Assembly: GCA_964412405.1 (NCBI GenBank)
Contig: CAYPOB010000003.1
Coordinates: 1 to 37,270 of the forward strand
Reading direction: 5' to 3'
Length of the DNA: 37,270 nucleotides
Source: an uncultured Methanocellales archaeon
GTDB taxonomy: Archaea > Halobacteriota > UBA148 > JAJOKI01
Shown here one piece after another: positions 11,199 through 28,651 of this stretch; position 1 is the stretch's first letter; the number at the start of each line of letters is the position of its first letter. The notes under the pieces are model-generated. The model was not told the DNA's origin. It searched no databases and saw only the letters and a program-made list of their open reading frames with translations. Position numbers and translations under genes: made by a program.

Positions 11199-12314
11199 TT
11201 AAATATAATCTATCATCCTATCTAAAAATCCCTTAGTTGTCTTTGCCTCCTCCCCGCCTTCTTTTACAAATTCTTTCAATAATTCTCCCTGTCTTTTGCT
11301 CAATTTCTTCGGTATCTTGACGACGACGTTTACTAATTGATCCCCTCTTCTACGGGTATGCAAATCGGACATCCCCTGCCCCCTCAGTCTAAACACAGTA
11401 TGGCTCTGCGTTCCCGTAGGCACCTTGATTTTCGCTTTGGATGATATCGTCGTAACTTCGATCTCATCGCCAAAAATCGCCTGTACTAAATTAATCGTCG
11501 ATTCAGATAATAAATCGTTCCCCCTTCTCTCAAATATTTTATGTGGCTTTATATGAATGATAATATACAAATCCCCTGGTGCACCGCCATTATACCCGGA
11601 TTCTCCCTGCCCTCCAATTCTTAAATACTGATTATTGTCAACTCCACTTGGAATTTTAATCTCTACTTTTTTTATCTTTTTAACTCTTCCAGCCCCTCTG
11701 CAAGTATCACAGGCTTTTTCTATGACTTTTCCATATCCTCCACAGTTACCACAGGCGGTGATATTTACCATTTGTCCAAAAATAGACCTTTGCACCCTCT
11801 TAATTTCGCCCGTACCATTGCATTCCGGGCATTCTTTGAGAAAGCCAGGTTTTGCTCCGGTACCCCTACAGGTCTCGCATGTGATAAATACGGGAACATC
11901 TATTTTTTTTGTCGTGCCAGAAAAAGCATCCTCTAAGGAAACTTCCATATCATATCTCAAATCAGCGCCCCTTCTTGTTCTACTCCTGCCACTCCTACGA
12001 CTAAAACCCGAAAAAGCGTCAAAAATATCTCCCAATCCAGAATCTCTGAACAAATCATCAAAATTAAATCCGCGAAAATCAGCGAAATCTTCCGGTTTAA
12101 AGGCAGTATGTCCAAACCGATCGTATTGCGCTCTTTTTTGCGAGTCATTCAAAACCTGAAATGCCTCGTTTATCTCCTTGAATTGTTCCTCATTATCTTT
12201 GCCCGCAATATCTGGGTGGTGCTTCCTTGCCAACTGCTTGAATGCCCTTTTTATCTCTTCTTGTGATGCGTTATTACTCACGCCTAAAATTTCATAATAG
12301 TCCTTTTTTGCCAT
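11199..12314 (-). CDS. dnaJ: chaperone DnaJ (type I)
   Basis: It has a J domain with HPD (KDYYEILGV...HHPDI), a G/F-rich linker and four CxxCxGxG zinc-finger repeats. The ORF opens at TTG 12329, and the ATG at 12314 gives the canonical MAKKDYYEILGV. Confidence 0.9.
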   Translation of the reverse strand: MAKKDYYEILGVSNNASQEEIKRAFKQLARKHHPDIAGKDNEEQFKEINEAFQVLNDSQKRAQYDRFGHTAFKPEDFADFRGFNFDDLFRDSGLGDIFDAFSGFSRRSGRSRTRRGADLRYDMEVSLEDAFSGTTKKIDVPVFITCETCRGTGAKPGFLKECPECNGTGEIKRVQRSIFGQMVNITACGNCGGYGKVIEKACDTCRGAGRVKKIKKVEIKIPSGVDNNQYLRIGGQGESGYNGGAPGDLYIIIHIKPHKIFERRGNDLLSESTINLVQAIFGDEIEVTTISSKAKIKVPTGTQSHTVFRLRGQGMSDLHTRRRGDQLVNVVVKIPKKLSKRQGELLKEFVKEGGEEAKTTKGFLDRMIDYI

Positions 12315-12408
12315 ATTCCAGTCTCTCAAGTTGTGGCCTTAATTGGCGAAATACAAGAAACTACTCCGCAGTTACTTGACTACATAATGCTATACATTAT
12401 ATACTACA

Positions 12409-12483: not shown

Positions 12484-14349
12484 TTACTTCGGCTCGTCCT
12501 CTACTTTGTATTCTGCGTCGATGACCTTTTCATCCTTGTGTTTTTCGTCCTCTTCCTTCTGGGATGTCCCCATATCTGCTTGCTGTTGTGTTTGCTGATA
12601 TATGGACGCACCCGCTTCCTGGACGATCTTTGCCAAATTATCCGTTTCGCTTTTTATTTTTTGCACGTCTTCCTCGGATAGGGCATCTTTAAGAGATTTG
12701 ATTCCTTCTTCGATGTTCTCTTTTTGTTCTTTATCCAGTTTATCTCCTATTTCTGATAGCGTCTTCTCGGTTGTGTAAAGTAAAGAGTCGGCATTGTTTT
12801 TTATCTCAACCTCTTCTTTTCTCCTTTTATCCTCTTCGTCATGTTTTTTTGCCTCTTTGATCATCCGCTCTACTTCTTCATCTGAGAGTTTTGTCGAAGC
12901 GGTAATCGTTATCTTCTGCTCTTTTTCAGTTCCCAAATCCTTAGCCGAGACGTTTAAGATGCCGTTAGCATCGATGTCAAAGGTTACCTCTATTTGCGGC
13001 ATCCCTCTTGGTGTGGGAGGTATTCCAACTAAATTAAAATTACCCAGACTGGTATTGTCCTGCGCCATCGATCTCTCTCCTTGCAGGACATTGATGGTAA
13101 CCGCTGTTTGTGAGTCGGCTGCCGTTGTGAATATCTGAGTTTTCTTGATGGGGATTGTAGTATTTCTCTCGATCAGAGGCGTTGTCATACCGCCCAGAGT
13201 TTCTATGCCCAGGGTAAGTGGGGTTACATCCAACAAAACCAAATCCTTAATATCTCCGGCAAGGATTGCGCCCTGTATTGCAGCGCCAGATGCCACACAT
13301 TCCATTGGGTCCACTCCTCCTTCGACTTTTCTTCCCATGAAATCCTCGACAAATTTCTGAACGCGGGGCATTCTCGTAGGACCGCCAACCAAGACGACCC
13401 TATCTATATCATCCTTTGATAATTTGGAATCTTTTATTGCCAGTTCGATCGAATGTTTACATTTATCTATTATGGGCTCAACCAATTTTTCCATTACAGC
13501 CCTGCCAAGCTTCATCGTCAAATGTTTAGGTCCTGAAGAATCAGCAGTTATGTATGGTAAATTGATATCCGTTTCAAGAACAGTTGAGAGTTCGATCTTT
13601 GCTTTCTCTGCCGCCTCTTTGACCCTCTGTAAAGCCATTTTATCTTTCTTTAAATCAACACCTTCTTGCTTTTTGAACTCCTCCGCAATATAATCAACTA
13701 AAACATCGTCCATATCTGTTCCGCCAAGTTGTGTATCTCCAGATGTGGACAGAACTGTAAATACTCCATCACTGAATTCCATTATGGTTACGTCCAGCGT
13801 TCCGCCGCCGAAATCAAAAACTAGTATTTTATACTCTCCTACCTTGTCCAGTCCATATGCCATAGAGGCAGCAGTTGGCTCATTGACCAACCTTATGACA
13901 TCCAAGCCAGCGATTTTTCCAGCGTCTTTAGTCGCAGTTCGTTGATTATCATCAAAATAAGCAGGAACCGTTATCACAGCTTTCTGTACAGGCTCTCCTA
14001 AGAATGCCTCCGCATCTCTTTTAATCTTCTGGAGAATGAAAGCAGAGATTTGCTGAGGACTATATTCTTTGCCATGCACTTTATATTTGTAGTCAGCACC
14101 CATTTTTCGCTTTGCTCTGGTTATCGTTCCTTCCGGGTTTGAAATGGCCTGCCTTTTTGCCGGTTCTCCGACCAGCAACTGTTCATCTTTTGTTAAAGCA
14201 ATAACGGATGGGAATGCCTTACCATACATGGTGACACCTTCTGCCGATGGAATTATAACCGGCTTTCCACCCATCATCACCGCTGCTTGGGAATTCGAAG
14301 TCCCCAAATCAATACCAATTATCTTTTCTATCTTATTCTGTTTGGTCAT
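12484..14349 (-). CDS. dnaK: chaperone DnaK (Hsp70)
   Basis: [19 protein letters not shown] and [10 protein letters not shown] signatures are present. The ORF opens at GTG 14358, but the ATG at 14349 is preceded by AGGTG at about 6 nt. Confidence 0.95.
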
Positions 14350-14351
14350 TT

Positions 14352-14882
14352 TTAACACCTTTCACACTTTTTTGAAACTTTCACTTTTGTGTACCTCAAA
14401 ACCCTTGAATGCAATAAATACCCTTTTTGCAGTTCACCTATGATGATACCATCTTCTTTGTCCGAGTTTTCTTTCAGGACAACTTCATGATAATATGGAT
14501 CAAATTTTTTACCCAAACATTCGATCTTTTTCAATCCATATCCCTCTAACATCTTTAAAATATTTTTGTATATTAGTTTCACCCCTCTTAACTCTTCTTT
14601 ATCTTTTACCGAACCCATCGCCCTTTCAAAATCATCGATGATAGTCAACAATTCCTTTATTAACTTTTTGTTGGCGAATTTCATAAATTCCTGTTTTTCT
14701 TTTTCTACCGACTTTTTATAATTCTCAAAATCCGCCTGTAAGTATTTCAGCTGATTTAGATATGCATCAGCTAACTTTGCCCTCTCTTCAAGTTCTTTCT
14801 CTGGTGCCCTACTTTTAAGGGGCATCTTCTTCTCTTCACTTGATTTTTTCTTACCCCGTTTTTCCCGTATCTGGACTGCCAT
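14352..14882 (-). CDS. grpE: nucleotide exchange factor GrpE (intact copy)
   Basis: 176 aa with a long N-terminal helix ([15 protein letters not shown]) and a C-terminal GY.L..RVLR..KVKV beta domain. It lies immediately upstream of dnaK. Confidence 0.9.
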
Positions 14883-15056
14883 AATCTATCTCTCTCTTTT
14901 GTTTTAGTATATAAAGTATGACTTTATAATCAAGTTAATCCGAACGAAGTGAGGCTTTTCTCGATGCCATTCTGCACCCGATACTTCTTTTTTTGAGGCA
15001 GATACTTTTATTTTACTGGGACTCCTTTATTTCATCAATTTCGTGGAGGAATATGA
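14585..15056. repeat. direct repeat copy 1 (472 bp): grpE codons 1-99 plus the whole grpE-copA intergenic region up to ATGA
   Basis: By eye it is base-for-base identical to 18654-19038, except that copy 2 lacks 87 bp (14701-14787). Confidence 0.95.
14931..14961 (+). promoter_or_regulatory. 31-nt conserved element in the grpE upstream region (copy 1)
   Basis: CAAGTTAATCCGAACGAAGTGAGGCTTTTCT lies 14 nt from TAGTATATAAAG (14905-14916). Its reverse-complement partner is at 12409-12439. Confidence 0.4.
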
Positions 15057-15193
15057 CGAGATATGGGAATGGTGTGCAGATGATTGGAGAAGCGATCGGA
15101 GGGTATAATAAAAAAGTCATTTTAGGGGTTGCACTTGGTGGAAAGAGGCATATTGAAATGCCTATGAAATATCCGATTTTCAGTGTGTGTTGA
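15053..15193 (+). other. junction ORF (46 aa) starting at the duplicated copA start codon and reading into cassette DNA
   Basis: The ATG at 15053 is the copy of the copA ATG, with the same GGAGG 5 nt upstream. The product MTRYGNGVQMIGEAIGGYNKKVILGVALGGKRHIEMPMKYPIFSVC has no recognisable family. Confidence 0.2.
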
Positions 15194-15233
15194 GGTAATT
15201 TTTACTTAAGTTAGCAGATTCGTTAAAAATAGA

Positions 15234-15252
15234 AAGGTTTATTAATAACCTT
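15234..15252 (+). promoter_or_regulatory. candidate promoter for the hydrogenase genes: TATA-like TTTATTAATA inside an AAGGTT-N7-AACCTT inverted repeat
   Basis: The element is seen in sequence. Its centre lies about 40 nt upstream of the ATG at 15285 and about 25 nt upstream of the GGAGG. Confidence 0.3.
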
Positions 15253-15284
15253 ATTATAATGATGTACAATGGAGGATGTATAAT

Positions 15285-16235
15285 ATGGCACTGGAAGAAA
15301 TAAATCTAATATGGCTTGAAGGTCTGGACTGTGCTGGCTGTACTATTTCTGTCAAACAGGCAAGTAATCCCACACTTATTGACGTTCTAACGGGAGCTAT
15401 TCCAGGGCTTGGGGGGCTGAATCTTGTTTTCCATCAAACCCTTATGTTCGAGTGGGGGGAGGATGCAACAAAGGTTCTCATTGATGCAATGGAAGGAAAG
15501 TATGACCCATTTGTATTGATTCTTGAAGGAGCGATTCCCGACGAGGAAAGGGCAAATCCCGGCAGCTACTGCGTTATTGGCGAGTACGAGGGAAAAACTC
15601 TCACGATTAATGAAGCCATAGATGGTCTATCGAAGAAGTGCGCTGCGGCCGTATCCGTTGGGACATGTGCATCTTTTGGAGGCGTACCCCATGGTAAGCC
15701 CAACCCAACAGGTGCGAAGGGACTCCTGGACTATTTGGGAAAGGATTGGAAAGGCGGGCTGGGTCTCCCTGTCATCTGTATACCTGGCTGTCCCCCCAGA
15801 CCTGATAACATCATACAGGTCCTAGGTCATGCTGTCTTGGCCGCAAGAGGCCTAGCACCACTTCCAGAGCTCGATGAATGGCATCGACCTGTTTATTTAT
15901 ACGGCAATACCTCTCATGAAAACTGTTCAATAGCTGGGCTATTCGCGGGGGGTGTTGCCTCTCATGACTTTGGAGAGAGGGGTTGCCTCGGTCTTGTCGG
16001 TTGTAAAGGCCTCGTTGCCCGTTGTAACGCTCCATCGATGTGGGTGGACGGATATGGAGGTTGCACGAGAACGGGTGCCCCATGCATTGCATGTGCCGAT
16101 CCCAACTTCCCCGACTCACCAACGTCGCCATTCTTCGCCGAAGCTCCTGCGATGGCATATGCCATAGACTTTATACATGGTTTGTGGGGGCACATGAGAT
16201 TCGCTCTTGCGCCCCTTAAAAGGAGGAAGATATAA
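15285..16235 (+). CDS. [NiFe]-hydrogenase small subunit, no Tat signal peptide
   Basis: Motifs present are CAGCTIS, GTCASFGG and IPGCPP (proximal cluster), then H-x2-C, GCLGLVGCKG and CTRTGAPCIAC (distal and medial clusters). The ORF opens at ATG 15276, but ATG 15285 has GGAGG 9 nt upstream. The protein begins 8-11 residues before the first cluster motif, so no twin-arginine leader is possible. Confidence 0.85.
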   Translation: MALEEINLIWLEGLDCAGCTISVKQASNPTLIDVLTGAIPGLGGLNLVFHQTLMFEWGEDATKVLIDAMEGKYDPFVLILEGAIPDEERANPGSYCVIGEYEGKTLTINEAIDGLSKKCAAAVSVGTCASFGGVPHGKPNPTGAKGLLDYLGKDWKGGLGLPVICIPGCPPRPDNIIQVLGHAVLAARGLAPLPELDEWHRPVYLYGNTSHENCSIAGLFAGGVASHDFGERGCLGLVGCKGLVARCNAPSMWVDGYGGCTRTGAPCIACADPNFPDSPTSPFFAEAPAMAYAIDFIHGLWGHMRFALAPLKRRKI

Positions 16236-17968
16236 TGAAGGAAATAACAATTGAACCCATAACGAGAGTTGAGGGACATCTCGGCGCTCACGTGAAGGTG
16301 GACACCAATACGAGAAAAATTATCGATGCACACGCATACAGCCCGATGTTTAGGGGTTTTGAAATCATTCTCATTGGAAGGGAACCATCCGATGCAATCT
16401 ATATTACGCAACGGTGTTGTGGTGTTTGCCCCATTCCTCACGCCTTCTCCGCAACCATAGCTGTTGATCAGATATATGGGGCATCCCCGCCGCCCATGGG
16501 CACCGTTATCAGGAATTTCGTTCATGGTGCAGAGCAGTTATACGATGCAGCGTTGGGTGTTATCAACCTCGAAGGGCCCGATTACAGCGAGGTTGCTGTA
16601 AAGAAGTTTAACCCTGAATGGTGGGAAGTGGCGCAAAAGACAAAGGCATCGAGATCCGATGTTCATGGCTTTGGGACAATCGCCGAAATCATGACCGCAC
16701 TCAATCCACTGGCTGGCGAGCTTTACCTTAGGTCTCTTCTCATCCAAAAGGCTGGGCACAACATGGCTGCGATTTTCGGCGCAAAGCACCCGCATGTCAA
16801 CACCTTCATTCCTGGAGGGGTTGCCAAAGCAAATCTTTCACCATCGGACATTGAATCATATCTCACGCTTCTCATGAGACATATAGCCTTCTCGAAGGAA
16901 CTGGTTACAGCTACTGACGATCTACTCAATTTCGTTCTCGAGCAAGGGTATGGGGACGTAGGTGCGAGAAAGATAAACCTCGGCGCTGTAGGCGTCTATG
17001 ACGACCCAGAGGCGTATTCTGCCGACTATGGCGAGATGACGGAGTGGGGTCGCAAGAGGATGTTGTCCCCTGGAGTAATACTCGATGGCAAACTCGTCAC
17101 AACAGACCTTGTTGAGTACAATGTCGGAGTGCGTGAGTATATCGGGAGTGGCTGGTATTCGAGTGAGTGGAAGCAAGAAATTGAAACCGATCCGTTGGGC
17201 AATACCATATCCTTAGAACACCCATGGAACAAGCGCACGATTCCAAAACCAGGCGAATATGGAAAGTGGGATGCCCCCTACTCTTGGGTCACCTCACCAA
17301 GATGGTGGCACTGGAAGGGGGATGGAGAGGACCACACCATCGAATTTGGTCCACTAGCGAGGATGTGGGTGACCGCAATGGCTAAACTTGTTCCCGAATC
17401 CACGGGTAAGGGCATCAAGTTCGAACTGCCTGCGGCTTTTATTCCTGGTTTCAAGTACGCAGAGGCGATGGAATTTGAGTGGAAAATTCCAGAGAAGCCA
17501 AATGCGGTGGAAAGGATCAGAGCTAGGGCATATTATCACGCATACTCTGCGTCTTGCATGCTGAAGATGGTAATGAAATCTTTAGAACTCTTGAAGGCTG
17601 GCGAGGCGGCGGTATGGACGCACTACAAAAAGCCCAAAGAAGGTATTGGCGTTGGTATGGTTGAAGGTGCGCGTGGTTCCTGTCAACACTGGTGTGTGAT
17701 GAAGAACAACGTCATTCACAACTATCAATATCATGCACCAACAACATGGAATGCATCACCCAGAGACCCTAAGGGCAATCCCGGACCCTACGAAGAAGCC
17801 CTCATTCAGACGCCGATCACCGAAGTTGGCGATCACGAAGGATGGAAAGGCATCGACGTCGTTAGAGTCATAAGAAGTTTTGATCCTTGTTTAGGATGCG
17901 CAGTTGCCGTCCATATTGGTAAGAAAATAGTTAAACACGAGTTACTTCCATTTGCAACGCCGCCGTAG
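16235..17968 (+). CDS. [NiFe]-hydrogenase large subunit
   Basis: It has N-terminal RVEGH, QRCCGVCPIPH and a C-terminal DPCLGCAVAVH followed by a 17-aa extension. It also has the PRD..G..GPYE block. AGGAGG lies upstream, and the start overlaps the small-subunit stop (TAATG). Confidence 0.9.
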   Translation: MKEITIEPITRVEGHLGAHVKVDTNTRKIIDAHAYSPMFRGFEIILIGREPSDAIYITQRCCGVCPIPHAFSATIAVDQIYGASPPPMGTVIRNFVHGAEQLYDAALGVINLEGPDYSEVAVKKFNPEWWEVAQKTKASRSDVHGFGTIAEIMTALNPLAGELYLRSLLIQKAGHNMAAIFGAKHPHVNTFIPGGVAKANLSPSDIESYLTLLMRHIAFSKELVTATDDLLNFVLEQGYGDVGARKINLGAVGVYDDPEAYSADYGEMTEWGRKRMLSPGVILDGKLVTTDLVEYNVGVREYIGSGWYSSEWKQEIETDPLGNTISLEHPWNKRTIPKPGEYGKWDAPYSWVTSPRWWHWKGDGEDHTIEFGPLARMWVTAMAKLVPESTGKGIKFELPAAFIPGFKYAEAMEFEWKIPEKPNAVERIRARAYYHAYSASCMLKMVMKSLELLKAGEAAVWTHYKKPKEGIGVGMVEGARGSCQHWCVMKNNVIHNYQYHAPTTWNASPRDPKGNPGPYEEALIQTPITEVGDHEGWKGIDVVRVIRSFDPCLGCAVAVHIGKKIVKHELLPFATPP

Positions 17969-18433
17969 CTCCTTTAAAATGAGCTCAACGGTCCTATGGA
18001 CAGCAGCCTCAACCTCTGGGCTTAATGTATCACCCAGGTCAACCTTCAAAATTTCGCAGCCAATAACGATGACAGTAGGTGGAAGAGATCCGATCGCTTT
18101 AGCGAAGAGAATGAGCTCCTCTAACCTGGCTTCATGAGCGCCGAGGAGAATAGAACTCCTCGCCTCTTCAGGCTTTAGTTTTTCCACCTGCCCAGCCTCG
18201 ATTTCCCTTCGATAAATCGTTCCAGCTTTTCCACTCGTCTCGACGGCATCAACAAAGATAACCAACTCATAGTCGCTGAGGTCTGGTGCGAGCGTCACAC
18301 CACAGAGTCCGACATCTCTAACCTCGATATCCTCTGGCAGGTCCCTCAGCATCAGTGTCTCGATGACCCTTGAACCGAAACCATCATCACCCATATACTT
18401 GTTCCCAATGCCTGCTACGAGGACCCTATTCAT
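17942..18433 (-). CDS. hydrogenase maturation endopeptidase (HyaD/HycI/FrhD family)
   Basis: VLVAGIGNKYMGDDGFG, VIFVDA and GAHEARL motifs are present. The ATG at 18433 is preceded by GGGGGT, while the ORF opens at TTG 18451. Its 3' end overlaps the large-subunit 3' end by 27 nt, convergently. Confidence 0.85.
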   Translation of the reverse strand: MNRVLVAGIGNKYMGDDGFGSRVIETLMLRDLPEDIEVRDVGLCGVTLAPDLSDYELVIFVDAVETSGKAGTIYRREIEAGQVEKLKPEEARSSILLGAHEARLEELILFAKAIGSLPPTVIVIGCEILKVDLGDTLSPEVEAAVHRTVELILKELRRRCKWK

Positions 18434-18535
18434 CTGTTTACCCCCTTGCAACTAGCCTATTGCATAAATCTACCATCTATGTCCCCCATACACTTTCCTT
18501 AAATGAATGTGAAGCTAAGATTCTATCGACCATCC

Positions 18536-18631
18536 CTATTCGCGCACCAGGTCTGTGAGATCATCAACTGCCCATCTCTGGTTGTGATCAAAGATGAGCG
18601 CGATCGTCCCAACGCGATACCCTTTTTGCAT
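18536..18631 (-). pseudogene. NikR-like remnant (31 codons)
   Basis: MQKGYRVGTIALIFDHNQRWAVDDLTDLVRE* aligns with the start of the metal-binding domain of the intact NikR in this window (EKVGVITLIYDHHKRGLGDILTDLQHKF). It has an in-frame stop three codons upstream and is truncated after about 31 aa. Confidence 0.4.
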
Positions 18632-18653
18632 ATCATCTTACTATCCTCTATTA

Positions 18654-18864
18654 CTCTTAACTCTTCTTTATCTTTTACCGAACCCATCGCCCTTTCAAAA
18701 TCATCGATGATAGTCAACAATTCCTTTATTAACTTTTTGTTGGCGAATTTCATAAATTCCTGTTTTTCTTCAAGTTCTTTCTCTGGTGCCCTACTTTTAA
18801 GGGGCATCTTCTTCTCTTCACTTGATTTTTTCTTACCCCGTTTTTCCCGTATCTGGACTGCCAT
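18654..18864 (-). pseudogene. grpE 5' fragment (codons 1-99 with a 29-codon in-frame deletion)
   Basis: It is identical to the 5' part of grpE at 14585-14882 minus 87 bp. It runs into unrelated sequence after ...KDKEELR. Confidence 0.85.
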
Positions 18865-18912
18865 AATCTATCTCTCTCTTTTGTTTTAGTATATAAAGTA
18901 TGACTTTATAAT

Positions 18913-18943
18913 CAAGTTAATCCGAACGAAGTGAGGCTTTTCT
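18913..18943 (+). promoter_or_regulatory. 31-nt conserved element (copy inside repeat 2, upstream of copA and of the grpE fragment)
   Basis: It is identical to 14931-14961. Confidence 0.4.
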
Positions 18944-19034
18944 CGATGCCATTCTGCACCCGATACTTCTTTTTTTGAGGCAGATACTTTTATTTTACTG
19001 GGACTCCTTTATTTCATCAATTTCGTGGAGGAAT

Positions 19035-21290
19035 ATGATTAGAAAAAACGTGAGCGATCGGGGATACGGCGAGCATGTCAAACGCATCGACTTGTACATT
19101 AGTGATATGCGATGTGCGGCCTGTGTCAAGACTATAGAAACGGCACTCAAAAAAACCGAGGGAGTGCTCGAGGCCACGGTAAACTTTGCCGTCAAAAAGG
19201 CAACCGTCGCTTATATTCCTGCCGCTGTGGTCCCCGAAGACTTGGTAAAGGTAGTTGACAACGCAGGGTATACTGCCGAGCTCCTAGGGAGGGAGTCCGA
19301 GGCGGTCGAAGAGGAAGACATTCGCAAGACGAGGGAGGCTTGGAACCGACTTAGATACTCACTCGTTCCAGGCACAATAATTATGATTTTGATGATGCTC
19401 CATTACATGACCCCAATCGATATTCCTCTCTACGTTCCCATCATCCTGGTGCTCGGATTTCCAATAGTTTTTATCTGGGGGTGGCCAACACAACGGTCCG
19501 CTCTTAGGGCTTACAGAACTCGGAGTCTTAACATGGACTCCCTTATATTCCTTGGCTCTGTTCCACCATACTTCATGGGCATTGCCGGGATATGGATTCC
19601 ACACATAATCTTTGTTGAGATGGCATCCTGGATTATGATATTCCACCTGCTTGGGAGATTCCTTGAGGCGAAGGCCAGGGGAAAAACATCCCAGGCGATT
19701 AAAAGGCTTTTGGAGATGGGGGCAAAGAATGCCAGAATCTTGAGGGGCGGTCAGGAAGTTGAGGTGCCGATTTCTGAGATAAAAGTGGGAGATATCATGA
19801 TCGTCCGTCCAGGGGAGAAAATACCAACCGACGGCGAGGTCATTGAGGGAAAAAGCGCAGTAGACGAGTCAATGGCCACCGGAGAGAGCATTCCAGTTGG
19901 AAAGAAGCCTGGAGAGGGGGTAATCGGCGCCACGATAAACGGGCAGGGGCTTTTGAAAGTGCGAACCACAAAGGTCGGAAAAGACACCTTCTTGGCCCAG
20001 GTCGCGAGGATGGTGGAAGAATGCCAGGGGAGCAAGATCCCTATCCAAGAATGGGCCGATAGAATAACGGGGCGCTTGGTACCCGCCATCATTGGATATT
20101 CTTTGCTCACATTTGCGCTCTGGATGCTTTTCCCAGATTTCTTCGTGGGTTTTATCAGGGGCTTTGAATTTCTGCCATGGGTCTGTGCGGGCCTCCCTCT
20201 TATAATTTTGGCGATATTAGCGATGGTAGCAGTACTTGTGATTTCGTGCCCCTGTGCCCTTGGATTGGCCACGCCGACTGCGCTGATGGTCGGAAGTGGA
20301 CTAGGTGCGGAGAGGGGCATTTTGATACGAAGGGGCGAGGTCATACAAACGATGAAAGATGTCAAAGTGATGCTCCTCGATAAAACTGGAACTTTGACGA
20401 AGGGCAAACCCGAGGTCACCGATGTTGTACCGTTTGGCACTAATGACGAAAAGTCGGTCCTGTACTATGCCGCTAGCGTCGAGCATGGCTCGGAACACCC
20501 CATCGGACGGACAATAGTTAACAGGGCGAAAGAGCTGAGAATCAAGTTGGAGGAGCCCAAATTATTTGAGGCCATAACTGGCAGTGGATGTAAAGGTGTT
20601 GTAAATGGCGCGGAGATTCTTGTTGGCAAACCTGGATTGATTGAAGGCAAATTGGAGCCATGCATAGGGGAAAAACTGAAAGAATTACAGGAACAGGCGA
20701 AGACAGCCATAGTCGTCGCAGTGGATAAAAAAGTCATAGGAGTTATCGCCGTCGCGGACACGCTGAAGGAGGGAACCGCCGAAGTCATCAGAGAACTTGG
20801 GCAGCTGGGACTGAAAACGATAATGCTCACTGGCGATAATCGAAAGACTGCTGAGGCGATAGCGAGGGAAATTGGCATAAGTGAGATATACGCCGAAGTC
20901 ATGCCCGATCAAAAAGTAGAGGCGGTACAACGGGCACAGCGAGAACACGGAATGGTCGCGATGGTTGGGGACGGCATTAATGATGCACCCGCAATAACCG
21001 CATCAAATGTCGGCATTGCGATTGGGACGGGTACGGATATTGCAATTGAAGCTGGTGACATCATATTGGTGAGAGGTGACCTCTCTGGAATCGTCACAGC
21101 GATTAAACTATCAAAGGCCACCTTCGGGAAAATTAAGCAAGGCTTTTTCTGGGCTTGTTTTTATAACGCTACTGCTGTGCCAATCGCCGGCTTAGGACTT
21201 CTGCATCCGATGATAGGTGCTTTGGCAATGGCAATGAGCTCCTTCACCGTGACGATGAATGCGATTCGGTTGAGGAAAGCCAAAATTTGA
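19035..21290 (+). CDS. copA: copper-translocating P1B-type ATPase
   Basis: It has an HMA domain with MRCAACV, a CPC transmembrane motif ([11 protein letters not shown]), DKTGTLT and GDGINDAP. The listed ORF opens at 18975 with TTG, but the ATG at 19035 has GGAGG 5 nt upstream. Confidence 0.9.
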
Positions 21291-21314: not shown

Positions 21315-21737
21315 CTAAAGTCCATCGCCCAGCGAAGTAATCGTCAATTTCACGTGTTTCACACCTTTAAGCGCCATTATCCTTTCCACGAGGGCTTTAA
21401 CGTCCTTTGCATCGCCCCTGACCAGTACGACTTCCATACAATTCTCATGGTCTATATGGACGTGGAGCGACGACTCGACCAATTTCAAGAATTTGTGCTG
21501 CAAGTCCGTGAGTATGTCACCCAGCCCGCGCTTATGATGGTCGTAGATGAGCGTTATCACGCCGACCTTCTCGCCCTCCTCTTTGCTCATCCACTCGTAG
21601 TCCACGATGTAGCTTCGAATCGCGTCTCTTATCCCCTCTGAGCGGGAGGAATATACTCTCTGTGCTATGATTTCATCGAATCTATCCAACAGATTGGCTG
21701 GAAGTGATACGCCGATCCTCATAAGTTCCTGTTCCAT
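21315..21737 (-). CDS. nikR: nickel-responsive regulator NikR
   Basis: 140 aa with an N-terminal ribbon-helix-helix (RIGVSLPANLLDRFDE...RSEGIRDAIR). The C-terminal ACT-like domain carries His/Cys ligands (HVHIDHENC). Confidence 0.85.
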   Translation of the reverse strand: MEQELMRIGVSLPANLLDRFDEIIAQRVYSSRSEGIRDAIRSYIVDYEWMSKEEGEKVGVITLIYDHHKRGLGDILTDLQHKFLKLVESSLHVHIDHENCMEVVLVRGDAKDVKALVERIMALKGVKHVKLTITSLGDGL

Positions 21738-21815: not shown

Positions 21816-22781
21816 TTACGCCAAGTGGCAGCCTACAAAGTGCTTATTTCCAATATCGACAAGTTCTGGCTCTATCCTGCCGCATTTCTCCATCCGATAG
21901 GGGCACCGAGTATGAAATTTACAGCCAGCAGGAGGGTCAATTGGACTTGGCATATCTCCTTCCAAGATTGTCCGCTTACGCTTGACTTCCGGGTTCGGAA
22001 TCGGGATGGCTGAAAGCAGGGCTTGGGTGTATGGGTGGTGGGGATGGTTAAACACACTGGTGGTTGAGCCCAGCTCCACGATCCGGCCCAGGTACATCAC
22101 CGCAATGCGGTCGCTCAGGTGTTTGACCACACTCAGGTCGTGAGTGATAAACAGGTAGGTGAGTCCGAGATTTTGCTGTAAATCCTGCATCAGGTTTAGA
22201 ATCTGAGCACGAATGGATACATCCAGGGATGACACCGCTTCGTCGGCCACGATAAACACCGGATCTACGGCAAGCGCCCGGGCGATTCCGATCCGCTGCT
22301 TTTGCCCGCCGCTGAATTCGTGCGGATATCTATCTGCCTGCGCCGGACTCAGACCGGCCAGTTCCATCAACTTGTCCACCCGTTTCGCCCGCCCAGCCTT
22401 GGGGACCAAATTGTGAATCACCAGCGGCTCACCAATGATTTCCCCGGCAGTCATGCGCGGGTTGAGCGAAGCCGACGGATCTTGAAATATCATCTGCATT
22501 CTACGTCGCAATCGACGTAATTCCCTTTGCCCCAGCTCGAACAGGTTGTTACCTTCAAAGTACACCCGGCCGGCCGTAGGTTCCAAAAGGCGCAAAACAA
22601 GCCTTCCTGTCGTCGATTTGCCACAACCGGATTCGCCGACTAGACCGAAAGTCTCCCCTTTTTCGATATCAAAACTGATCCCATCGACGGCATGTACTAC
22701 CCCGCCTTTTCTTGAAAACAGCCCCTTGGTCGAAAAGTGTTTTTTCAGGTCTTTGGCTTCGAGTAGCAACTCCGACATCAC
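21816..22781 (-). CDS. ABC transporter ATPase, NikE/OppF/DppF-like
   Basis: It has Walker A GESGCGKST, signature FSGGQKQR, Walker B FIVADEAVS and the C-terminal Cys-rich oligopeptide-type tail (GCKFHTRCP). It has a 4-nt overlap with the upstream gene. Confidence 0.85.
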   Translation of the reverse strand: MMSELLLEAKDLKKHFSTKGLFSRKGGVVHAVDGISFDIEKGETFGLVGESGCGKSTTGRLVLRLLEPTAGRVYFEGNNLFELGQRELRRLRRRMQMIFQDPSASLNPRMTAGEIIGEPLVIHNLVPKAGRAKRVDKLMELAGLSPAQADRYPHEFSGGQKQRIGIARALAVDPVFIVADEAVSSLDVSIRAQILNLMQDLQQNLGLTYLFITHDLSVVKHLSDRIAVMYLGRIVELGSTTSVFNHPHHPYTQALLSAIPIPNPEVKRKRTILEGDMPSPIDPPAGCKFHTRCPYRMEKCGRIEPELVDIGNKHFVGCHLA

Positions 22782-23764
22782 GACTCACCCCGCGTTTCGG
22801 CCGACCAACAACGCACCCAATGCCCCGACTCAACCTCGATCATTGATGGTTTTCGTTGACGGCAAATCTCTTCGGTGATTGGACAACGTGGGTGAAATCG
22901 GCAGCCTGTGGGTGGCTGAGCTGGGTCGGGTACGGTACCCTCAATGGTCTTTAGTCGTTCAACATCGATGTCGATTCTGGGGATCGAGTTGAACAACCCC
23001 CAGGTGTATGGATGGCGTGAATTGCCGAAAAGTGCCATAGTGGACGCACGTTCGACAATACTCCCGGCGTACATGACGGCAACCTGGTCGCATACCTCGG
23101 CAATGACTCCAAAATCATGGGTAATCAACAGCAAGGAGGTGCCTAAATCTCTGGTCAAGCTTTCCATCAGTCCCAAAATTTGAGCCTGGATGGTGACGTC
23201 GAGTGCCGTGGTCGGCTCATCGGCGATCAGTAGCGCCGGTTTACAAGCGAGCGCCATCGCGATCATGACACGCTGACGCATGCCGCCACTGAGCTGGTGT
23301 GGGTATTCGCTTACCCTGGTCGCCGGTGCGGGAACTCCCACTAATCCCAACATCTCCATCGCTTTACTTTTAGCCTGTGCGTTGCTTAAACCCTGATGCC
23401 ATTTGATGGCTTCCGCGATCTGCTCGCCGATGGTCAGAACCGGATTCAATGAACTCATCGGCTCTTGAAAGATCATCGAGATCCGATTGCCGCGTATTTT
23501 TCGCATTTCTGGCTCGCTTTTCTCAATCAGATTCTCCTTTTCAAACCAGATCTCGCCGTCAACCATCCTACCTGGGCTGGGAATCAGGCGCATGATCGAA
23601 AGGGCGGTAACCGTTTTTCCGCATCCGGATTCGCCGACCAACCCGACGATCTCTCCATGGCCTATTTTTAAATCTACCGCTTCTACGGCTCGTATCACCC
23701 CATTTTCGGTAAAAAAATGGGTACTCAGCCCATGGATGTTCAACAATTCCCTGTTTTCACTCAT
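22778..23764 (-). CDS. ABC transporter ATPase, NikD/OppD/DppD-like
   Basis: It has Walker [17 protein letters not shown] and LLIADEPTT. The start is taken at MSENRELL (ATG 23764), which overlaps the permease stop as ATGA. The longer ORF to 23923 would overlap the permease by 160 nt. Confidence 0.85.
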
Positions 23765-24714
23765 CTCGCCATCCCCTTCAACCGTGGATCGAGCACATCT
23801 CTGAGCCCATCGCCCATGAAATTGAAGGCCAAAACGGCCACCATTATCGACAACCCAGGGAAAATCGTTAGGTGGGGGGCGGTCCGCATGAAAGCCCGTC
23901 CATCGTTCAACATCGAACCCCACTCTGGGATGGGGGGCTGGGCGCCCAACCCCAAGAAACTCAAGGCGGCCGCCGCTAAAATCACGTGGGCCATGCCCAG
24001 CGTGGCCATCACGATCACCGGAGCCATAACGTTGGGCAATATATGCCGGAACATGACCCTGGCGTCACTGGCACCAAGTGCCCGCGCCGCCTCCACAAAA
24101 TCCTTTTCTTTTACCGAAAGCACCGACCCCCGTACCACACGGGCATAACTTGTCCAACCAACCACTGCCAAAGCCAACATGACGTTATACAGCGAAGGAC
24201 CCAGTATGCCGGCGATCACCAGCGCTAAAATAATGCCGGGAAAAGCCAGTAATATATCCACAGTTCGCATGATCAGTTCATCGATCAGACCCCCGTAGTA
24301 ACCGGCGATCAGCCCGAGCGTCACGCCTATAATTGAGGAGATGCCTACGACCATGACGCCGATTTGCAGCGAAACGCCGGCACCGTGAATCAGGCGGCTC
24401 AAAACACAACGGCCAAGATTATCGGTTCCAAACGGGAATTCTAAGTTTAGCTGCAGCAGCCGATCGAACTTGTTTTGCTTCAGTGGGTCAGTTAATATCG
24501 TGTACGCTGCAGTTAGTACATCTGGCGACAGCCGCTCGGCCAAATTTTGCTCAATCGGATCGTTGGGAGCGATAAAAGGTGCCAAGATAGCAATAAAAAC
24601 CAACACTAAAATAATCCCTGCCCCGATCAGGGCCAAGCGGTGCTTTTTAAGTCCTCGGAAAACCTCGGTCGAAGGCAGTCGGCTTTCGATAATCTTGGTT
24701 ACCATATCGTGCAT
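23761..24714 (-). CDS. ABC transporter permease, NikC/OppC/DppC-like
   Basis: 317-aa polytopic protein with the EAA-type loop (VEAARALGAS). Confidence 0.85.
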   Translation of the reverse strand: MHDMVTKIIESRLPSTEVFRGLKKHRLALIGAGIILVLVFIAILAPFIAPNDPIEQNLAERLSPDVLTAAYTILTDPLKQNKFDRLLQLNLEFPFGTDNLGRCVLSRLIHGAGVSLQIGVMVVGISSIIGVTLGLIAGYYGGLIDELIMRTVDILLAFPGIILALVIAGILGPSLYNVMLALAVVGWTSYARVVRGSVLSVKEKDFVEAARALGASDARVMFRHILPNVMAPVIVMATLGMAHVILAAAALSFLGLGAQPPIPEWGSMLNDGRAFMRTAPHLTIFPGLSIMVAVLAFNFMGDGLRDVLDPRLKGMAR

Positions 24715-25652
24715 TATTTCGCCTCGTAGCGTATTTTGGGATCCAAATAGGCATAAGAAAGGTCAACCAGGAGATTCACCAGTACAAACATAGCAGCAAT
24801 GAACAAGATGCATCCCTGTATCATTGGTAAGTCTCGGGCAAAGATCGAATCAACCAACAGCCGACCGATTCCGGGCCAGGCGAAGATCACCTCAACGATG
24901 ACTGCACCCTCCAACAGAAAGGCGAACTGGAGGCCGATAATGGTGACCACCGGGATCATGGCGTTCTTTAAGGCATGTTTGTAAATCACGACATTTTCCT
25001 TTAATCCCTTGGCCCTTGCGGTCCGAATATAATCCTGTCCGAGCACCTCGAGCATGCTGGAACGGATGAGACGCGTGGTGATTGCCGCCATGCCAGTGCC
25101 AAGCGTGATGGCTGGCAGGATCAGGTGTTCTATGCCGCCCCTGCCAAATACTGGCAACCAGCCCAAATGTACTGAAAAAAACATTATGAGCAATAGCCCC
25201 AGCCAGAAATTGGGCATGGAAACCCCTAAAAGCGCACCGAACATGCTGATGTTATCGACCGCCGAGTATTGCCTGGTGGCCGAGACGATCCCGACCGGGA
25301 TCGCGATGAGGAGCGCTATCAACATCCCGGCCAGGGCCAGTTGGAGGGTGGCCGGCAACCTGGTCAGGATTTCATCCAACACCGGACGATCGGTACGAAA
25401 AGAATAGCCGAGATCACCCTGTAATACATTGGCCAGCCAGTTAAAATACTGCAAATACACCGGCTGGTCGAGACCCAATTCCCCCCTTACATGTTCGATC
25501 GTCTCTGCTGTGACTTCCTCTCCATAGCGTTCCATAGCGATCATCTCGGCCGGATCACCCGGCACCAAATGCATCATGGAAAAAGTAATCACTGACACGC
25601 CCAGCAGGATAAAAACCATCAGGCCAACTCTTCTGATGATGTAGGTTAGCAT
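24714..25652 (-). CDS. ABC transporter permease, NikB/OppB/DppB-like
   Basis: 312 aa. MLTYIIRR...GDP and the YIRTARAKGL EAA loop are typical of the family. Confidence 0.85.
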   Translation of the reverse strand: MLTYIIRRVGLMVFILLGVSVITFSMMHLVPGDPAEMIAMERYGEEVTAETIEHVRGELGLDQPVYLQYFNWLANVLQGDLGYSFRTDRPVLDEILTRLPATLQLALAGMLIALLIAIPVGIVSATRQYSAVDNISMFGALLGVSMPNFWLGLLLIMFFSVHLGWLPVFGRGGIEHLILPAITLGTGMAAITTRLIRSSMLEVLGQDYIRTARAKGLKENVVIYKHALKNAMIPVVTIIGLQFAFLLEGAVIVEVIFAWPGIGRLLVDSIFARDLPMIQGCILFIAAMFVLVNLLVDLSYAYLDPKIRYEAK

Positions 25653-25662
25653 TCGATATCAC

Positions 25663-26457
25663 CTAAACGGGAAGTTCAATACTGATAATCGCACTTATCC
25701 CTTCCTCTTTTCGATAGAGCACCCCATCCTTTTCTTCTAGGCGATTCAGTAAATATACCCGCAACTCATCTTCCTTTTCGGGTAGTAGGTCAAGTCGATC
25801 CATCCAGTGTTTTGCTGCCTGCTCAATGTCCGAATAAACCTGATCCCGGGGGGCCCGTATCACCTCCACGTTAGCAGGTATCCCCAGCTCATAGAGAACA
25901 TTATACAGGTAAATGAAACTGGGCAGGGGATGGTATTCTTCTTCTTTAAAGCGTTGCCAGATATCCGCATAAAAATTCACCTGGCCAACTCTAGTAATGA
26001 TACAAAGCTGTGTTTTCGCTGTCGAGAGCATCTTTTTCAGCTCGGCCCCAATGTCAACGATACCGTAGAGCGAATGGGCGGCCAATACCAAGTCATGCCG
26101 GCCGATTTCCCCTATATTGACGTCTTGCCAGCGCTTATCGATGATGTGGATATTGGTCAAACCCTCTGCTTTGCTACGTAACTGTTTGGACATTTCTGCT
26201 GAGGGCTCTATTGCGGTAACTTCTCCTGCCTTTTGAGCAATGGGGATCGTAAAAGCACCGGTACCGGCGCCGATGTCCAGCACTGTTGAACGCTCGTTCA
26301 AATATTTCTGTACTTTATCCAGCAAAACCCCGGGATAATTGTTATGTTCAAGCTGCAATTCATACCATTCGACGAATTCGCTGGTAGTGAAGGGGTCACC
26401 CCTCTTTCTGAGCGATGACTTCAACACCAACTTTCGCCATTCTGCAGACCAGTTCAT
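25663..26457 (-). CDS. class I SAM-dependent methyltransferase embedded in the ABC operon
   Basis: It has motif I VLDIGAGTGAFT, post-I AIEPS and motif II-like DLVLAAHSLY. It lies 2 nt after the binding-protein stop and 10 nt before the permease start. Confidence 0.75.
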   Translation of the reverse strand: MNWSAEWRKLVLKSSLRKRGDPFTTSEFVEWYELQLEHNNYPGVLLDKVQKYLNERSTVLDIGAGTGAFTIPIAQKAGEVTAIEPSAEMSKQLRSKAEGLTNIHIIDKRWQDVNIGEIGRHDLVLAAHSLYGIVDIGAELKKMLSTAKTQLCIITRVGQVNFYADIWQRFKEEEYHPLPSFIYLYNVLYELGIPANVEVIRAPRDQVYSDIEQAAKHWMDRLDLLPEKEDELRVYLLNRLEEKDGVLYRKEEGISAIISIELPV

Positions 26458-26459
26458 AA

Positions 26460-28052: not shown

Positions 28053-28636
28053 TCCCCCTCCTCAAAACATGGAATACACACTATTTTCCCGTCTTTAACC
28101 CTGCCAAATGCCTCACCAAAATATTCCTCACATACAGAGCATCGTACCGATCTGAAAATGCGGGCAAATGTGGGAGCCTCCAAGTGAATTTTCTTAACAT
28201 TGAACAGTTCCTGGTTAGAGAGTTCCATCATTTGCTGCGACTTTTTCTCGGCCATCTTCATCATCTCTTCTTTTGGAACGTTGCATTCTTTCCGTGCCCG
28301 CCCAAAATCAGAATTCATCAAGTCCTCCAGCACTTTTTCCTTTACTACTAAACGAATGGCATCCCCGGTTGCCCGGTTGATGAAAGACACCGCCATCTTC
28401 CCATAGTTTTTAAGTATCAGGTTTCCCTTGCCGAGAGTGCAGCCGCTGGCTGACTGAATAGCATCAACCATGCAGGTGTCATTCTCGACGATAGCAACTA
28501 TCTCCTCATCCCCCGGTTTTTGAGCTCGTAGTCTCTCCAATCCCAGCTCAGATGCTCGCACCCCAAAAACTACCGGCGGACACAGGTGCCCATGAAACTC
28601 AACAGCCTTCTCAAGCTCGGTTTTCGGTATACACAT
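28049..28636 (-). CDS. FmdE/FwdE-domain protein with C-terminal CxxC...CxxC zinc ribbon
   Basis: FHGHLCPP and DTCMVDAIQSASGCTLGKGN are hallmark FmdE-domain motifs. The C-terminal part has CSVCEE...CIPCFE. GAGGAGGTGA lies upstream, and the stop overlaps the SBP1 start (ATGA). Confidence 0.75.
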   Translation of the reverse strand: MCIPKTELEKAVEFHGHLCPPVVFGVRASELGLERLRAQKPGDEEIVAIVENDTCMVDAIQSASGCTLGKGNLILKNYGKMAVSFINRATGDAIRLVVKEKVLEDLMNSDFGRARKECNVPKEEMMKMAEKKSQQMMELSNQELFNVKKIHLEAPTFARIFRSVRCSVCEEYFGEAFGRVKDGKIVCIPCFEEGE

Positions 28637-28651
28637 GTTTTTGTCACCTCC

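Follow-up and report, generated by a model that had tools for sequence, protein, structure and literature searches.

A young grpE/promoter duplication brackets a [NiFe]-hydrogenase cassette in a 'Ca. Serpentinarchaeum'-like archaeon

HyaAB hydrogenases accompanied by HyaD are known from 'Ca. Serpentinarchaeum' Met12 (CP017966.2; PMC11176372) and from the Lost City Methanocellales MAG-838 (JAJOKI; PMC9469722), genomes that are both described in PMC11176372. The window analyzed here, one whole metagenome contig of 37,270 nt, encodes a hydrogenase that shares with these two a 316-aa small subunit, a 577-584-aa large subunit, a convergent 163-167-aa protease, the host genus, and direct repeats of local DNA on the flanks of the cassette. 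However, it lacks the 197-201-aa cytochrome-b-like gene found after the protease in Met12 and MAG-838, and its locus differs: the cassette lies between duplicated 201/102/280-aa genes in Met12 and upstream of an amidohydrolase in MAG-838, but between grpE and copA'/nikR in the window. The flanking repeats are unmentioned in PMC11176372 and PMC9469722. Proteins of the window cluster at at least 90% identity with those of Met12 and MAG-838; the host, an uncultured member of the Methanocellales, is 'Ca. Serpentinarchaeum'-like and belongs to a Met12-like, non-methanogenic genus from serpentinite-hosted systems. Campbell-type (ends-in, single-crossover) integration produces the 'pop-in/pop-out' merodiploids of archaeal genetics, while promoter capture by tandem duplication plus deletion, or by template switch, is treated in bacterial duplication-remodelling and in the FoSTeS/MMBIR models.

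The hydrogenase cassette and its relics

The cassette and its ends comprise the following features:
15053..15193, + strand: ORF46, or relic Y' (15089-15203 homologous to positions 1-115 of contig L090, 76% nt identity)
15285..16235, + strand: hydS/hyaA, [NiFe]-hydrogenase small subunit, 316 aa (Pfam Oxidored_q6 and NiFe_hyd_SSU_C; NCBIfam)
16235..17968, + strand: hydL/hyaB, large subunit, 577 aa (Pfam NiFeSe_Hases)
17942..18433, - strand: hycI/hyaD, maturation endopeptidase, 163 aa from ATG (Pfam HycI; TIGR00072, E 5e-34)
18484..18653, - strand: nikR' relic, retaining roughly codons 40-97 and the final codons (NikR_C, 28.9 bits, E 1.3e-6)

The Pfam matches confirm the first-pass annotation, which had placed hydSL, a maturation protease and a NikR-like remnant between two repeat copies. 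Judged from their sequences, the hydS, hydL and protease genes are intact. HydL (86% aa identity to MAG-838) retains both Ni-binding motifs (RCCGVCPIPH at residue 60, DPCLGC at residue 550) and has a C-terminal extension; HydS (80% aa identity to L081/L082) has no Tat signal visible in its sequence; hycI is convergent with hydL and their ends overlap. HyaA/HyaB and HyaD appear most similar to cytosolic hydrogenases of the actinobacterial (group 1h-like) type. The best solved relative of HydL is HofG of the R. eutropha actinobacterial-type [NiFe]-hydrogenase HofKG (PDB 5AA5, group 1h/5; full-length alignment, E 2.8e-141), whose partner small subunit likewise lacks a visible Tat signal. However, HofKG is distant, and the nearer cluster is archaeal (ANME-1, Syntropharchaeia, Alkanophagales, Bathyarchaeia; 55-79% aa identity).

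The first-pass annotation had looked to BLAST for a donor lineage, but positions 15205-18446 are 85% identical in nucleotides to the cassette of MAG-838, a sister lineage found in the same samples, and the cassette appears lineage-typical rather than obviously foreign. Its decayed ends match its neighbors in L090, where the 3' end of Y is followed by hydL, hycI and, immediately after it, an intact nikR; nikR thus adjoins the cassette there and nearly does so in the window. The nikR' relic occupies the position of that intact gene, and conservation through the hycI-nikR spacer extends as far as 18483. L090 stops short on the left and does not cover the native status of the junction between the first repeat copy and Y'.

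The nikR' relic carries two in-frame stops and an internal deletion of ~125 bp. It retains 44-53% aa identity in tblastn; in nucleotides it is 57-58% identical to each of the two intact nikR genes, whose identity with each other is 77%. The intact nikR of L090 is 82% identical in nucleotides to that of the window. Differences between Y' and L090 are distributed 10/8/10 over the codon positions, that is, without codon-position bias, and ORF46 has no homologs among 1.84 billion representative proteins; it is probably now non-coding. A TPR match of ORF46 was rejected as spurious.

The repeat copies and the host locus

The repeat (R) and its host locus comprise the following features:
11199..12329, - strand: dnaJ (Pfam DnaJ, DnaJ_CXXCXGXG, DnaJ_C; 91% nt identity and synteny with contig L084)
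12416..12439, - strand: third copy of a small element core, within a ~92-nt insertion in the dnaK-dnaJ spacer
12484..14358, - strand: dnaK (Pfam HSP70, E 4e-223; 91.8% nt identity to L084)
14352..14882, - strand: full-length grpE, 176 aa (Pfam GrpE, E 1.9e-41), first 99 codons within copy A
14585..15056: copy A of the repeat, 472 bp (codons 1-99 of grpE, the grpE core promoter with 37 nt, and the 137-nt segment m, ending in a Shine-Dalgarno GGAGG plus ATGA)
14920..15056, + strand: segment m, 137 nt, not in the relative L084, to which homology stops at 14919
18523..18864, - strand: grpE' open frame, 113 aa (70 GrpE codons, then an out-of-frame run through the nikR' relic)
18654..19038: copy B of the repeat, 385 bp (copy A with 87 bp deleted)
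19035..21290, + strand: copA', 5'-truncated P1B-type ATPase, with its ATG from the end of copy B
21315..21737, - strand: intact nikR (Pfam RHH_1 and NikR_C)
21816..30247, - strand: nickel/peptide-type ABC transporter operon (two ATPases, two permeases, two SBP_bac_5 binding proteins)

Each copy holds grpE codons 1-99, 170 nt of intergenic DNA and ATGA. The two were described in the first-pass annotation as identical base for base save one 87-bp gap in the second, and this holds: a repeat search, MAFFT and a BLASTN comparison of repeat and window agree in pairing 14585-14701 with 18654-18770 (117/117) and 14785-15056 with 18767-19038 (272/272), with zero substitutions, which gives 472 bp for copy A and 385 bp for copy B. 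The gap in copy B, the single difference, is edged by the 4-bp repeat TCTT (14698-14701, 14785-14788); since the 87 bp are present in L084, the deletion is derived. Identity begins and ends sharply, with CACCC versus CTATTA before CTCTTAAC on the left and CGAG versus TTAG after ATGA on the right. The window contains no other repeat longer than 55 nt, and the A/B repeat is thus far beyond chance. Because the copies are 100% identical the duplication is young, bearing out the earlier claim of a very recent event, and relics Y' and nikR', decayed and diverged while the repeat stayed perfect, are far older.

The repeat is read as a young segmental duplication that spans grpE codons 1-99 and the divergent promoter region. 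Copy A, which is continuous with grpE and faces hydSL, is the original; copy B lies precisely at the breakpoint of copA with its grpE promoter directed into hycI, and this order along the contig is known from a single short-read metagenome assembly. The grpE' frame lies upstream of hycI in the same direction; GrpE itself is 88% identical in amino acids to P0122 on L084. In segment m, one copy of a small intergenic element has its core at 14931-14954; the segment also contains TTTATAA, which is TATA-like, and a terminal GGAGG-N3-ATG. The window has three occurrences of this core, with zero expected; the ~92-nt spacer insertion holding the third copy is not in L084 and has TTGTAT at its flanks.

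The content given for the copies in the first-pass annotation (grpE codons 1-99, intergenic DNA, copA start) stands except for ATGA, which had been taken as the native first four bases of copA and is a fusion joint. copA' has one HMA domain, while its closest homologs (806-815 aa) have two and all contain the ~55 codons of the first HMA domain that it lacks. Its alignment to homolog P0242 begins at residue ~56-58; the terminal ATG of the repeat is joined in frame to copA codon ~56, and the repeat ends exactly at the breakpoint. copA' would thereby take its promoter, Shine-Dalgarno site and in-frame ATG from copy B.

The layout proposed earlier, namely full grpE, repeat, cassette, truncated grpE', repeat and copA, is confirmed. 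By contrast, the proposal that grpE-intergenic-copA was the native arrangement is not upheld: no record with grpE adjacent to copA was found, none of those searched showed an empty site, and nikR directly precedes grpE in two relatives (Lost City MAG-838, contig L084; Met12 gene table, genes 363-366). Positions 1-68 of L084 match 21376-21309, the window nikR end, at 97% identity. By sequence comparison the ancestral order in the genus appears to be nik transporter, nikR, grpE, dnaK, dnaJ; a methyltransferase and an FmdE-like gene lie inside the transporter operon. As nikR and grpE are adjacent in both relatives, 14920-21308 (6.4 kb, copA included) is a derived islet, consisting of the intact hydrogenase cassette, the old end relics Y' and nikR', and a horizontally acquired 5'-truncated copA. 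The bracketed structure is likewise derived, since the relatives' grpE (L084; Met12 gene table) has no hydrogenase beside it.

Origin of the bracket

The cassette occupies a different locus in each of Met12, MAG-838, L090 and the window, and three of these four cassettes, that of the window included, have brackets of directly repeated local DNA: 130 bp (97% identity, locus-specific) in MAG-838 and, from the published gene table, a duplicated three-gene block of about 1.8 kb in Met12. These recurrent brackets are a new observation in MAG-838 and, by gene table, in Met12. The MAG-838 structure was recovered independently by two assemblies; the first Met12 assembly version lacks the cassette and one repeat copy.

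The first-pass annotation attributed the bracket to Campbell-type integration of a circular DNA. The topology fits that reading, but is not unique to it, as tandem duplication plus deletion, or a double template switch, gives the same result equally well, and the analysis leans to this second pair of routes. In the reading tentatively favored here, the cassette would already have been resident next to nikR, and the duplication would have arisen within the lineage, either by tandem duplication of 14585-18653, after which a deletion took out the 5' end of copA along with the second copy of the cassette, or by one double template switch; the 87 bp of copy B would have been lost later by slippage. 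Resembling duplication-remodelling, the duplicate lies head-to-tail with its source at a distance of a few kb, no signature of a mobile element marks the new joints, and the derived copy sets a native promoter, Shine-Dalgarno site and ATG in frame before a gene without its own 5' end. However, tandem duplication and illegitimate deletion are two rare events, neither a two-cassette intermediate nor a relative in the pre-duplication state (grpE-R-Y'-hyd-nikR'-...-full copA) was found, and this route does not predict that brackets would recur around the same cassette, as they do in three genomes. That recurrence points to a cassette-centered process with the bracket intrinsic to integration, and fits less well with chance local duplication. 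Such a process could be a corrected form of the Campbell integration, in which a circle derived from a conspecific or sister genome, carrying Y'-hydS-hydL-hycI-nikR' and a grpE 5'/promoter arm, entered grpE-R-truncated copA by a single crossover. As in a merodiploid, direct repeats of one target segment enclose the cargo, the left continuous with grpE and the right with copA', no recombinase gene is needed (annotation of the 37,270 nt found no integrase, transposase or tRNA gene anywhere in the window, as the first-pass annotation had stated for the first two), and the right boundary falls where two alleles would lose homology. Varied loci with local brackets are the expected trace of repeated single crossovers, and the incomplete first Met12 assembly also agrees. 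Nevertheless this origin, circle included, is judged less likely than the in-lineage duplication: the empty site grpE-R-copA' is absent from the records searched, PLSDB (plasmids) and IMG/VR (viruses) contain no circular carrier, and the supposed target is already a fusion joint involving a truncated gene. Moreover, the cargo ends are old pseudogene relics, far more decayed than the perfect repeat and matching the gene order of a relative's chromosomal locus, and landing 2.3 kb from nikR, the cassette's L090 neighbor, would be a coincidence of about 1 in 100-200. It also leaves the first arrival at the locus unexplained, because the homology arm requires a donor already carrying the cassette beside it.

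In a one-step duplicative insertion without a homology arm, a broken fork or DNA end would have copied the cassette by microhomology-mediated, MMBIR-like template switching and re-entered the chromosome upstream, at a distance of a few hundred bases, with duplication of the target. Relocation of the cassette and formation of the bracket would then be a single event without transposase or integrase. Bracket lengths that vary widely (130 bp, 385/472 bp, about 1.8 kb), each of local DNA, and the intact neighboring host gene left by the duplicated stretch in the window and MAG-838 agree with it, and the target end CTGAAGTTGGCG at the left joint of MAG-838 agrees at 9/12 positions with the cassette sequence found at the same place in the window, CTTAAGTTAGCA. 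It is nonetheless improbable: grpE-R-copA' must pre-exist, the 9/12 match could be chance, and to our knowledge no MMBIR-like mechanism is established in archaea. Equally doubtful is an assembly artefact, with a true state of grpE-R-copA' plus a separate cassette-R molecule or strain variant (a 3,982-bp circle or a tandem array) whose loop was threaded by the assembler. The two states yield identical de Bruijn graphs, the contig comes from a short-read metagenome, and the Met12 assembly history shows that such loops are easily mis-threaded; in addition, exact hydL, hydS and grpE products are absent from the records of the Logan assemblies, although the copA'-nikR contig is present. On the other hand, contig construction requires all four junction types in the reads, the copy-specific 87-bp deletion let the assembler distinguish the copies, a 4-kb circle without a replication gene could not persist, and the MAG-838 bracket came from two assemblies independently. 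Logan contigs from two SRA runs equal window positions 19009-24479 with 1 and 4 mismatches, and both end exactly 30 nt (k-1) inside the repeat; thus its right end, where these independent assemblies branch, has two continuations in raw reads.

Under the favored in-lineage duplication as under Campbell integration, recombination between copies A and B would delete the cassette and leave grpE-R-copA'. The repeats thus lend support to the instability predicted in the first-pass annotation, and the hydrogenase would be easy to lose.

A direct repeat around the hydrogenase cassette

The hydrogenase cassette lies between two head-to-tail copies of a direct repeat, copy A (14585-15056, 472 bp) and copy B (18654-19038, 385 bp), which start 4,069 bp apart, near their source and with no recombinase. 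Repeat search, MAFFT and BLASTN against the window agree that 14585-14701 equals 18654-18770 and 14785-15056 equals 18767-19038 with zero substitutions. The copies differ solely by a gap of 87 bp in the second, as the first-pass annotation had read; its view of a recent event also holds, since copies identical without a substitution mark a young direct duplication. No other repeat longer than 55 nt occurs in the 37-kb window. The tetranucleotide TCTT borders the gap on both sides, and the 87 bp are present in the closest relative, Lost City contig L084; the deletion is therefore derived in copy B. Microhomology is seen at this secondary deletion only; for the main joints a judgement would need the ancestral sequence. 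Each copy comprises grpE codons 1-99, a 170-nt spacer and ATGA preceded by GGAGG. Copy A continues into the remaining grpE and copy B into copA', a 5'-truncated copA, as in a Campbell-type product.

Pfam matches agree with the gene content proposed earlier for the interval between the copies, including a NikR-like remnant:

Features between the repeat copies
15285-16235, hydS (hyaA), hydrogenase small subunit
16235-17968, hydL (hyaB), large subunit that has the two nickel-binding motifs and is extended at its C terminus
17942-18433, HycI/HyaD protease gene (hycI), convergent
18484-18653, nikR', NikR_C relic

The small subunit has Fe-S cluster domains, the large subunit has CxxC nickel-binding motifs at both ends, and a protease for C-terminal processing is present, as expected of a [NiFe]-hydrogenase structural cassette of the group 1, cytosolic 1h-like type. 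None of the window ORFs is a Hyp maturation gene. In more distant relatives hypA/B and hypCDF adjoin the cassette, and in ANME-1-like genomes and Syntropharchaeia a complete hyp cluster surrounds the genes and flanking repeats are absent. No window ORF matches a transposase or integrase Pfam family, as had been asserted, no inverted repeats were found around the cassette, the window contains no tRNA genes and no Rfam family matched over 11000-22000. The marks of a transposon, IS or integrase-borne island (transposase or integrase gene, terminal inverted repeats, short target-site duplication or tRNA att site) are not seen at the locus.

The best eight CopA homologs (70-82% identical to CopA', one annotated as from an Aerophobetes bacterium) have 806-815 aa and two HMA domains, except for one partial 685-aa entry. 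The product of copA' (19035-21290, + strand) retains the E1-E2 ATPase and HAD domains and one HMA domain rather than the two of its nearest homologs, and its alignment begins at homolog residue ~56-58. The last four bases of the repeat, taken in the first-pass annotation for the first four of copA, are in fact a fusion joint, in frame (ATG A/TT AGA AAA, joint at the slash) and inside the first HMA domain. copA' is a truncated, horizontally acquired gene whose breakpoint coincides with the end of the repeat. Because the fusion is in frame, copy B supplies the promoter, Shine-Dalgarno sequence and start codon to copA'. The locus offers a clean natural example of duplication providing an imported, truncated copA with a start codon and promoter of native origin.

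The duplicated segment is probably a divergent promoter region. Copy A would keep grpE-dnaK-dnaJ expressed, facing Y'-hydSL (Y', ORF46, is the relic at the left cassette end); copy B would drive copA' and, in the opposite direction, the grpE' fragment reading into hycI. Recombination between the identical blocks of 117 and 272 bp would delete the hydrogenase.

A small element with the core CAAGTTAATCCGAACGAARTGAGG occurs three times in the window (0 expected), at 12416-12439 (-), 14931-14954 (+) and 18913-18936 (+), every copy pointing to a downstream gene (dnaJ, hydSL/Y' and copA'). Relative to L084, the copy in the dnaK-dnaJ spacer (12350-12445) is a ~92-nt insertion flanked by TTGTAT. The element could be MITE-like and promoter-bearing, or a shared regulatory site. 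Its core has no copy in the other 95 related loci, no Rfam match and no copy in JGI metagenome contigs, a collection without these samples.

Host lineage and the ancestral locus

The window is one entire metagenome contig of 37,270 bp. Its housekeeping proteins fall in clusters of at least 90% identity with those of 'Methanosarcinales archaeon Met12' (CP017966) and the Lost City genome MAG-838 (MCD54...; JAJOKI). These two make up 'Ca. Serpentinarchaeum', a genus proposed for non-methanogenic Methanocellales from serpentinite-hosted systems (PMC11176372). L084 is syntenic with window 5680-14919 at 89-92% nucleotide identity. In it a 68-nt spacer parts the preceding nikR 3' end from grpE-dnaK-dnaJ, and nt 1-68 of L084 match window 21376-21309 at 97%. 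The Met12 gene table has the same order (genes 363-366: AppF, NikR, GrpE, DnaK). Since both relatives place nikR directly upstream of grpE, 14920-21308 is a derived islet, containing a 137-nt segment (14920-15056), the cassette, copy B and copA. The native grpE-copA intergenic region supposed earlier thus has no counterpart in known relatives, and the search it called for, for grpE adjacent to copA without a hydrogenase, found no such empty site among 80 genome loci or the closest protein matches. In the islet neighbourhood the nik operon for nickel uptake and NikR are found together with a nickel enzyme and a pump for metal efflux.

The grpE-dnaK-dnaJ operon (11199-14882) has a G+C content of 40.8%, against 47-50% around it. 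Beyond the sister lineage, the best matches of its chaperones are from DPANN archaea (GrpE 58-67%, DnaK 75-79%), and Met12 GrpE (162 aa), although at the same locus, is not among the best 120 matches. The operon may have been replaced in place by a foreign version.

The cassette in close relatives

HyaAB is listed as the hydrogenase of this lineage (PMC11176372; PMC9469722). A foreign donor of 15057-18653 had been suspected; 15205-18446 instead has 85% nucleotide identity to the cassette of the sister-lineage MAG-838 (contigs L081 and L082, the latter from the same sample as L084). The conserved upstream sequence that belongs to hydS itself is retained over ~70 nt. By sequence comparison, the cassette is typical of the lineage and still has old neighbours beside it.

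These neighbours are visible in L090, a contig of a relative from JGI 3300033145. It begins with a homologue of window 15089-15203 (76%), represented by its 3' end, which is followed by a degenerate IS5-family transposase in the place of hydS (117-1126; NF033579, E 3e-26), hydL-hycI with 85.6% identity to the window up to 18483 and, directly after, an intact nikR with 82% nucleotide identity to the intact nikR of the window. The L090 hydrogenase is probably dead, because the transposase replaces hydS and leaves hydL-hycI-nikR. From this gene order, the ragged cassette ends of the window, Y' and nikR', match the cassette neighbours in L090.

Both relics appear old, whereas the repeat copies beside them are identical. 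nikR' carries two stops and a ~125-bp internal deletion and is 57-58% identical to either intact nikR, the intact pair sharing 77% over the same stretch; a recent duplicate of the resident nikR, which lies only 2.8 kb from the cassette, was rejected on this identity. The differences between Y' and L090 are equal at all three codon positions. The divergence of nikR' (18484-18653) exceeds that expected of an L090 nikR ortholog or a resident copy, and the adjacent hycI-nikR spacer is still conserved. nikR' may be foreign, possibly having arrived with copA, or very old. Among 1.84 billion representative proteins ORF46 matched only itself and a TPR-repeat protein, a match judged spurious; a pattern scan for Y' in JGI metagenome DNA, a collection without these samples, returned nothing, not even the contig of L090. 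An FGE-sulfatase relic ('EIWEWCADDW', 15057-15110), initially suspected, was dropped for lack of a Pfam match even at E<=10.

In MAG-838 a 130-bp direct repeat, its copies 97% identical, flanks the cassette and spans the promoter/TATA region of an amidohydrolase gene through codon 32. One copy lies directly upstream of hydS (L082 70-199) and the other 4.7 kb downstream, before the intact amidohydrolase gene (L081 4690-4819); L081 1-74 is also listed for this bracket. Two independent assemblies agree on it. It encloses hydS-hydL-hycI, a gene for a 197-aa cytochrome-b-like protein and an IS5 end. At its left joint the target end CTGAAGTTGGCG resembles window cassette sequence CTTAAGTTAGCA (15205-15216) at 9/12 positions. 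IS5 remnants occur in relatives L090 and L081 only, a 70-bp piece of the L090 IS5 end being found also in MAG-838 (L081 4330-4399). The idea, based on this shared piece, that the MAG-838 arrangement is that of L090 in circularly permuted form was rejected, because the piece is the end of an IS5-family element.

In the Met12 gene table (PMC11176372, supplement file 7; CP017966.2), genes 873-882 read as a triplet of 201, 102 and 280 aa, HyaA, HyaB, HyaD, the same triplet again, and CobT. The triplets (cytochrome-b-like protein, small protein, decahaem cytochrome; ATZ61368.2-61370.2 and WRQ72882.1-ATZ61375.2) agree in the table in cluster ids, lengths and strand. PMC11176372 makes no comment on this duplication. 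For genes 876-881, the cassette plus one triplet, the first assembly version provides no accession, and that assembly probably skipped a loop here. Bracketing by direct repeats of local DNA is thus found in three (window, MAG-838 and, by its gene table, Met12) of the four contexts, all different, that the cassette occupies in four close relatives (three named genomes and L090).

Origin and consequences of the arrangement

The established elements are the young duplication, the islet, the truncated copA at the repeat end, the lineage-typical cassette with old relic ends and the brackets recurring in relatives. Assembly mis-threading, which would make the order an artefact, is improbable. Logan contigs L091 and L092 from two SRA runs (5,471 bp each) correspond to window 19009-24479 with 1 and 4 mismatches, and both stop exactly 30 nt (k-1) before the 19038/19039 joint. 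A unitig at k=31 ends in this way when the last 30-mer of the repeat can be continued in two ways; the raw reads of both runs therefore contain the branch. This support is indirect and no proof of linear order, because an empty site accompanied by a 3,982-bp circle would yield the same graph as the integrated form. Logan assemblies have no record of the exact HydL, HydS and GrpE products; this is expected of GrpE because the repeat boundaries would fragment grpE, and is unexplained for HydL and HydS.

A local route is tentatively favoured, either in two steps, 14585-18653 being duplicated in tandem and a deletion then running from where the second repeat copy ends into copA, or by a double template switch. 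It is preferred because inherited synteny would then account for the nearness of the cassette to nikR, the relics are older than the repeat, the in-frame copA' fusion arises as a deletion or switch joint, and neither a second allele nor a circular donor needs assuming. The chief argument against it is that brackets recur around the same cassette, which favours a cassette-centred integration process. This recurrence counts for the single-crossover (Campbell-type) integration proposed in the first-pass annotation, as does the ends-in topology; however, duplication or template switching gives the same topology, and no empty-site allele exists in L084, Met12 or the 80 loci. Neither cassette relatives nor a circular donor were found in IMG/VR or PLSDB; a transient circle would be in no database. 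Such an integration is rather unlikely. The repeat observation of the first-pass annotation is confirmed and its interpretation partly supported. One-step microhomology-mediated duplicative insertion would also suit the recurrence, and the 9/12 match at the MAG-838 left joint speaks for it; it is as improbable as mis-threading. A broader proposal, an unlikely one, is that in 'Ca. Serpentinarchaeum' the HyaAB-HyaD cassette forms a unit that relocates without a recombinase, each new settling of which would duplicate 0.13-1.8 kb of target DNA, often a host promoter and 5' coding end; the duplication would spare neighbouring host genes, give promoters to incoming genes and leave the cassette excisable. 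If true, archaeal operons would have a general means, not described so far, of moving and of staying optional within species.

The structure adds one more case to a known class of rearrangements; its interest comes from the recurrent bracketing of the lineage's only catalytic hydrogenase, where H2 use is debated. Met12-type Methanocellales have been proposed as electron-fuelled acetogens hardly dependent on H2, with HyaAB as the only catalytic hydrogenase (PMC11176372). Bracketing in three of four contexts makes this hydrogenase deletable, and in the window genome it sits in an islet beside a nickel regulator and a nickel transporter. Whether strains in serpentinite systems gain and lose H2 metabolism can thus be tested directly. 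For MAG assembly there is a practical warning: loops of this kind are readily passed over or threaded wrongly, and the cassette was missing from the first version of the Met12 genome.

Downstream, the nik/opp-type operon at 26460-30247 contains two paralogous SBP_bac_5 genes (530 and 531 aa) that have a 55-nt stretch in common at 82% identity, with an FmdE-like gene and a methyltransferase between or beside them. L091 and L092 also share a stop at 24479, inside the nik permease genes, which indicates a further branch point, either a repeat or a strain variant.
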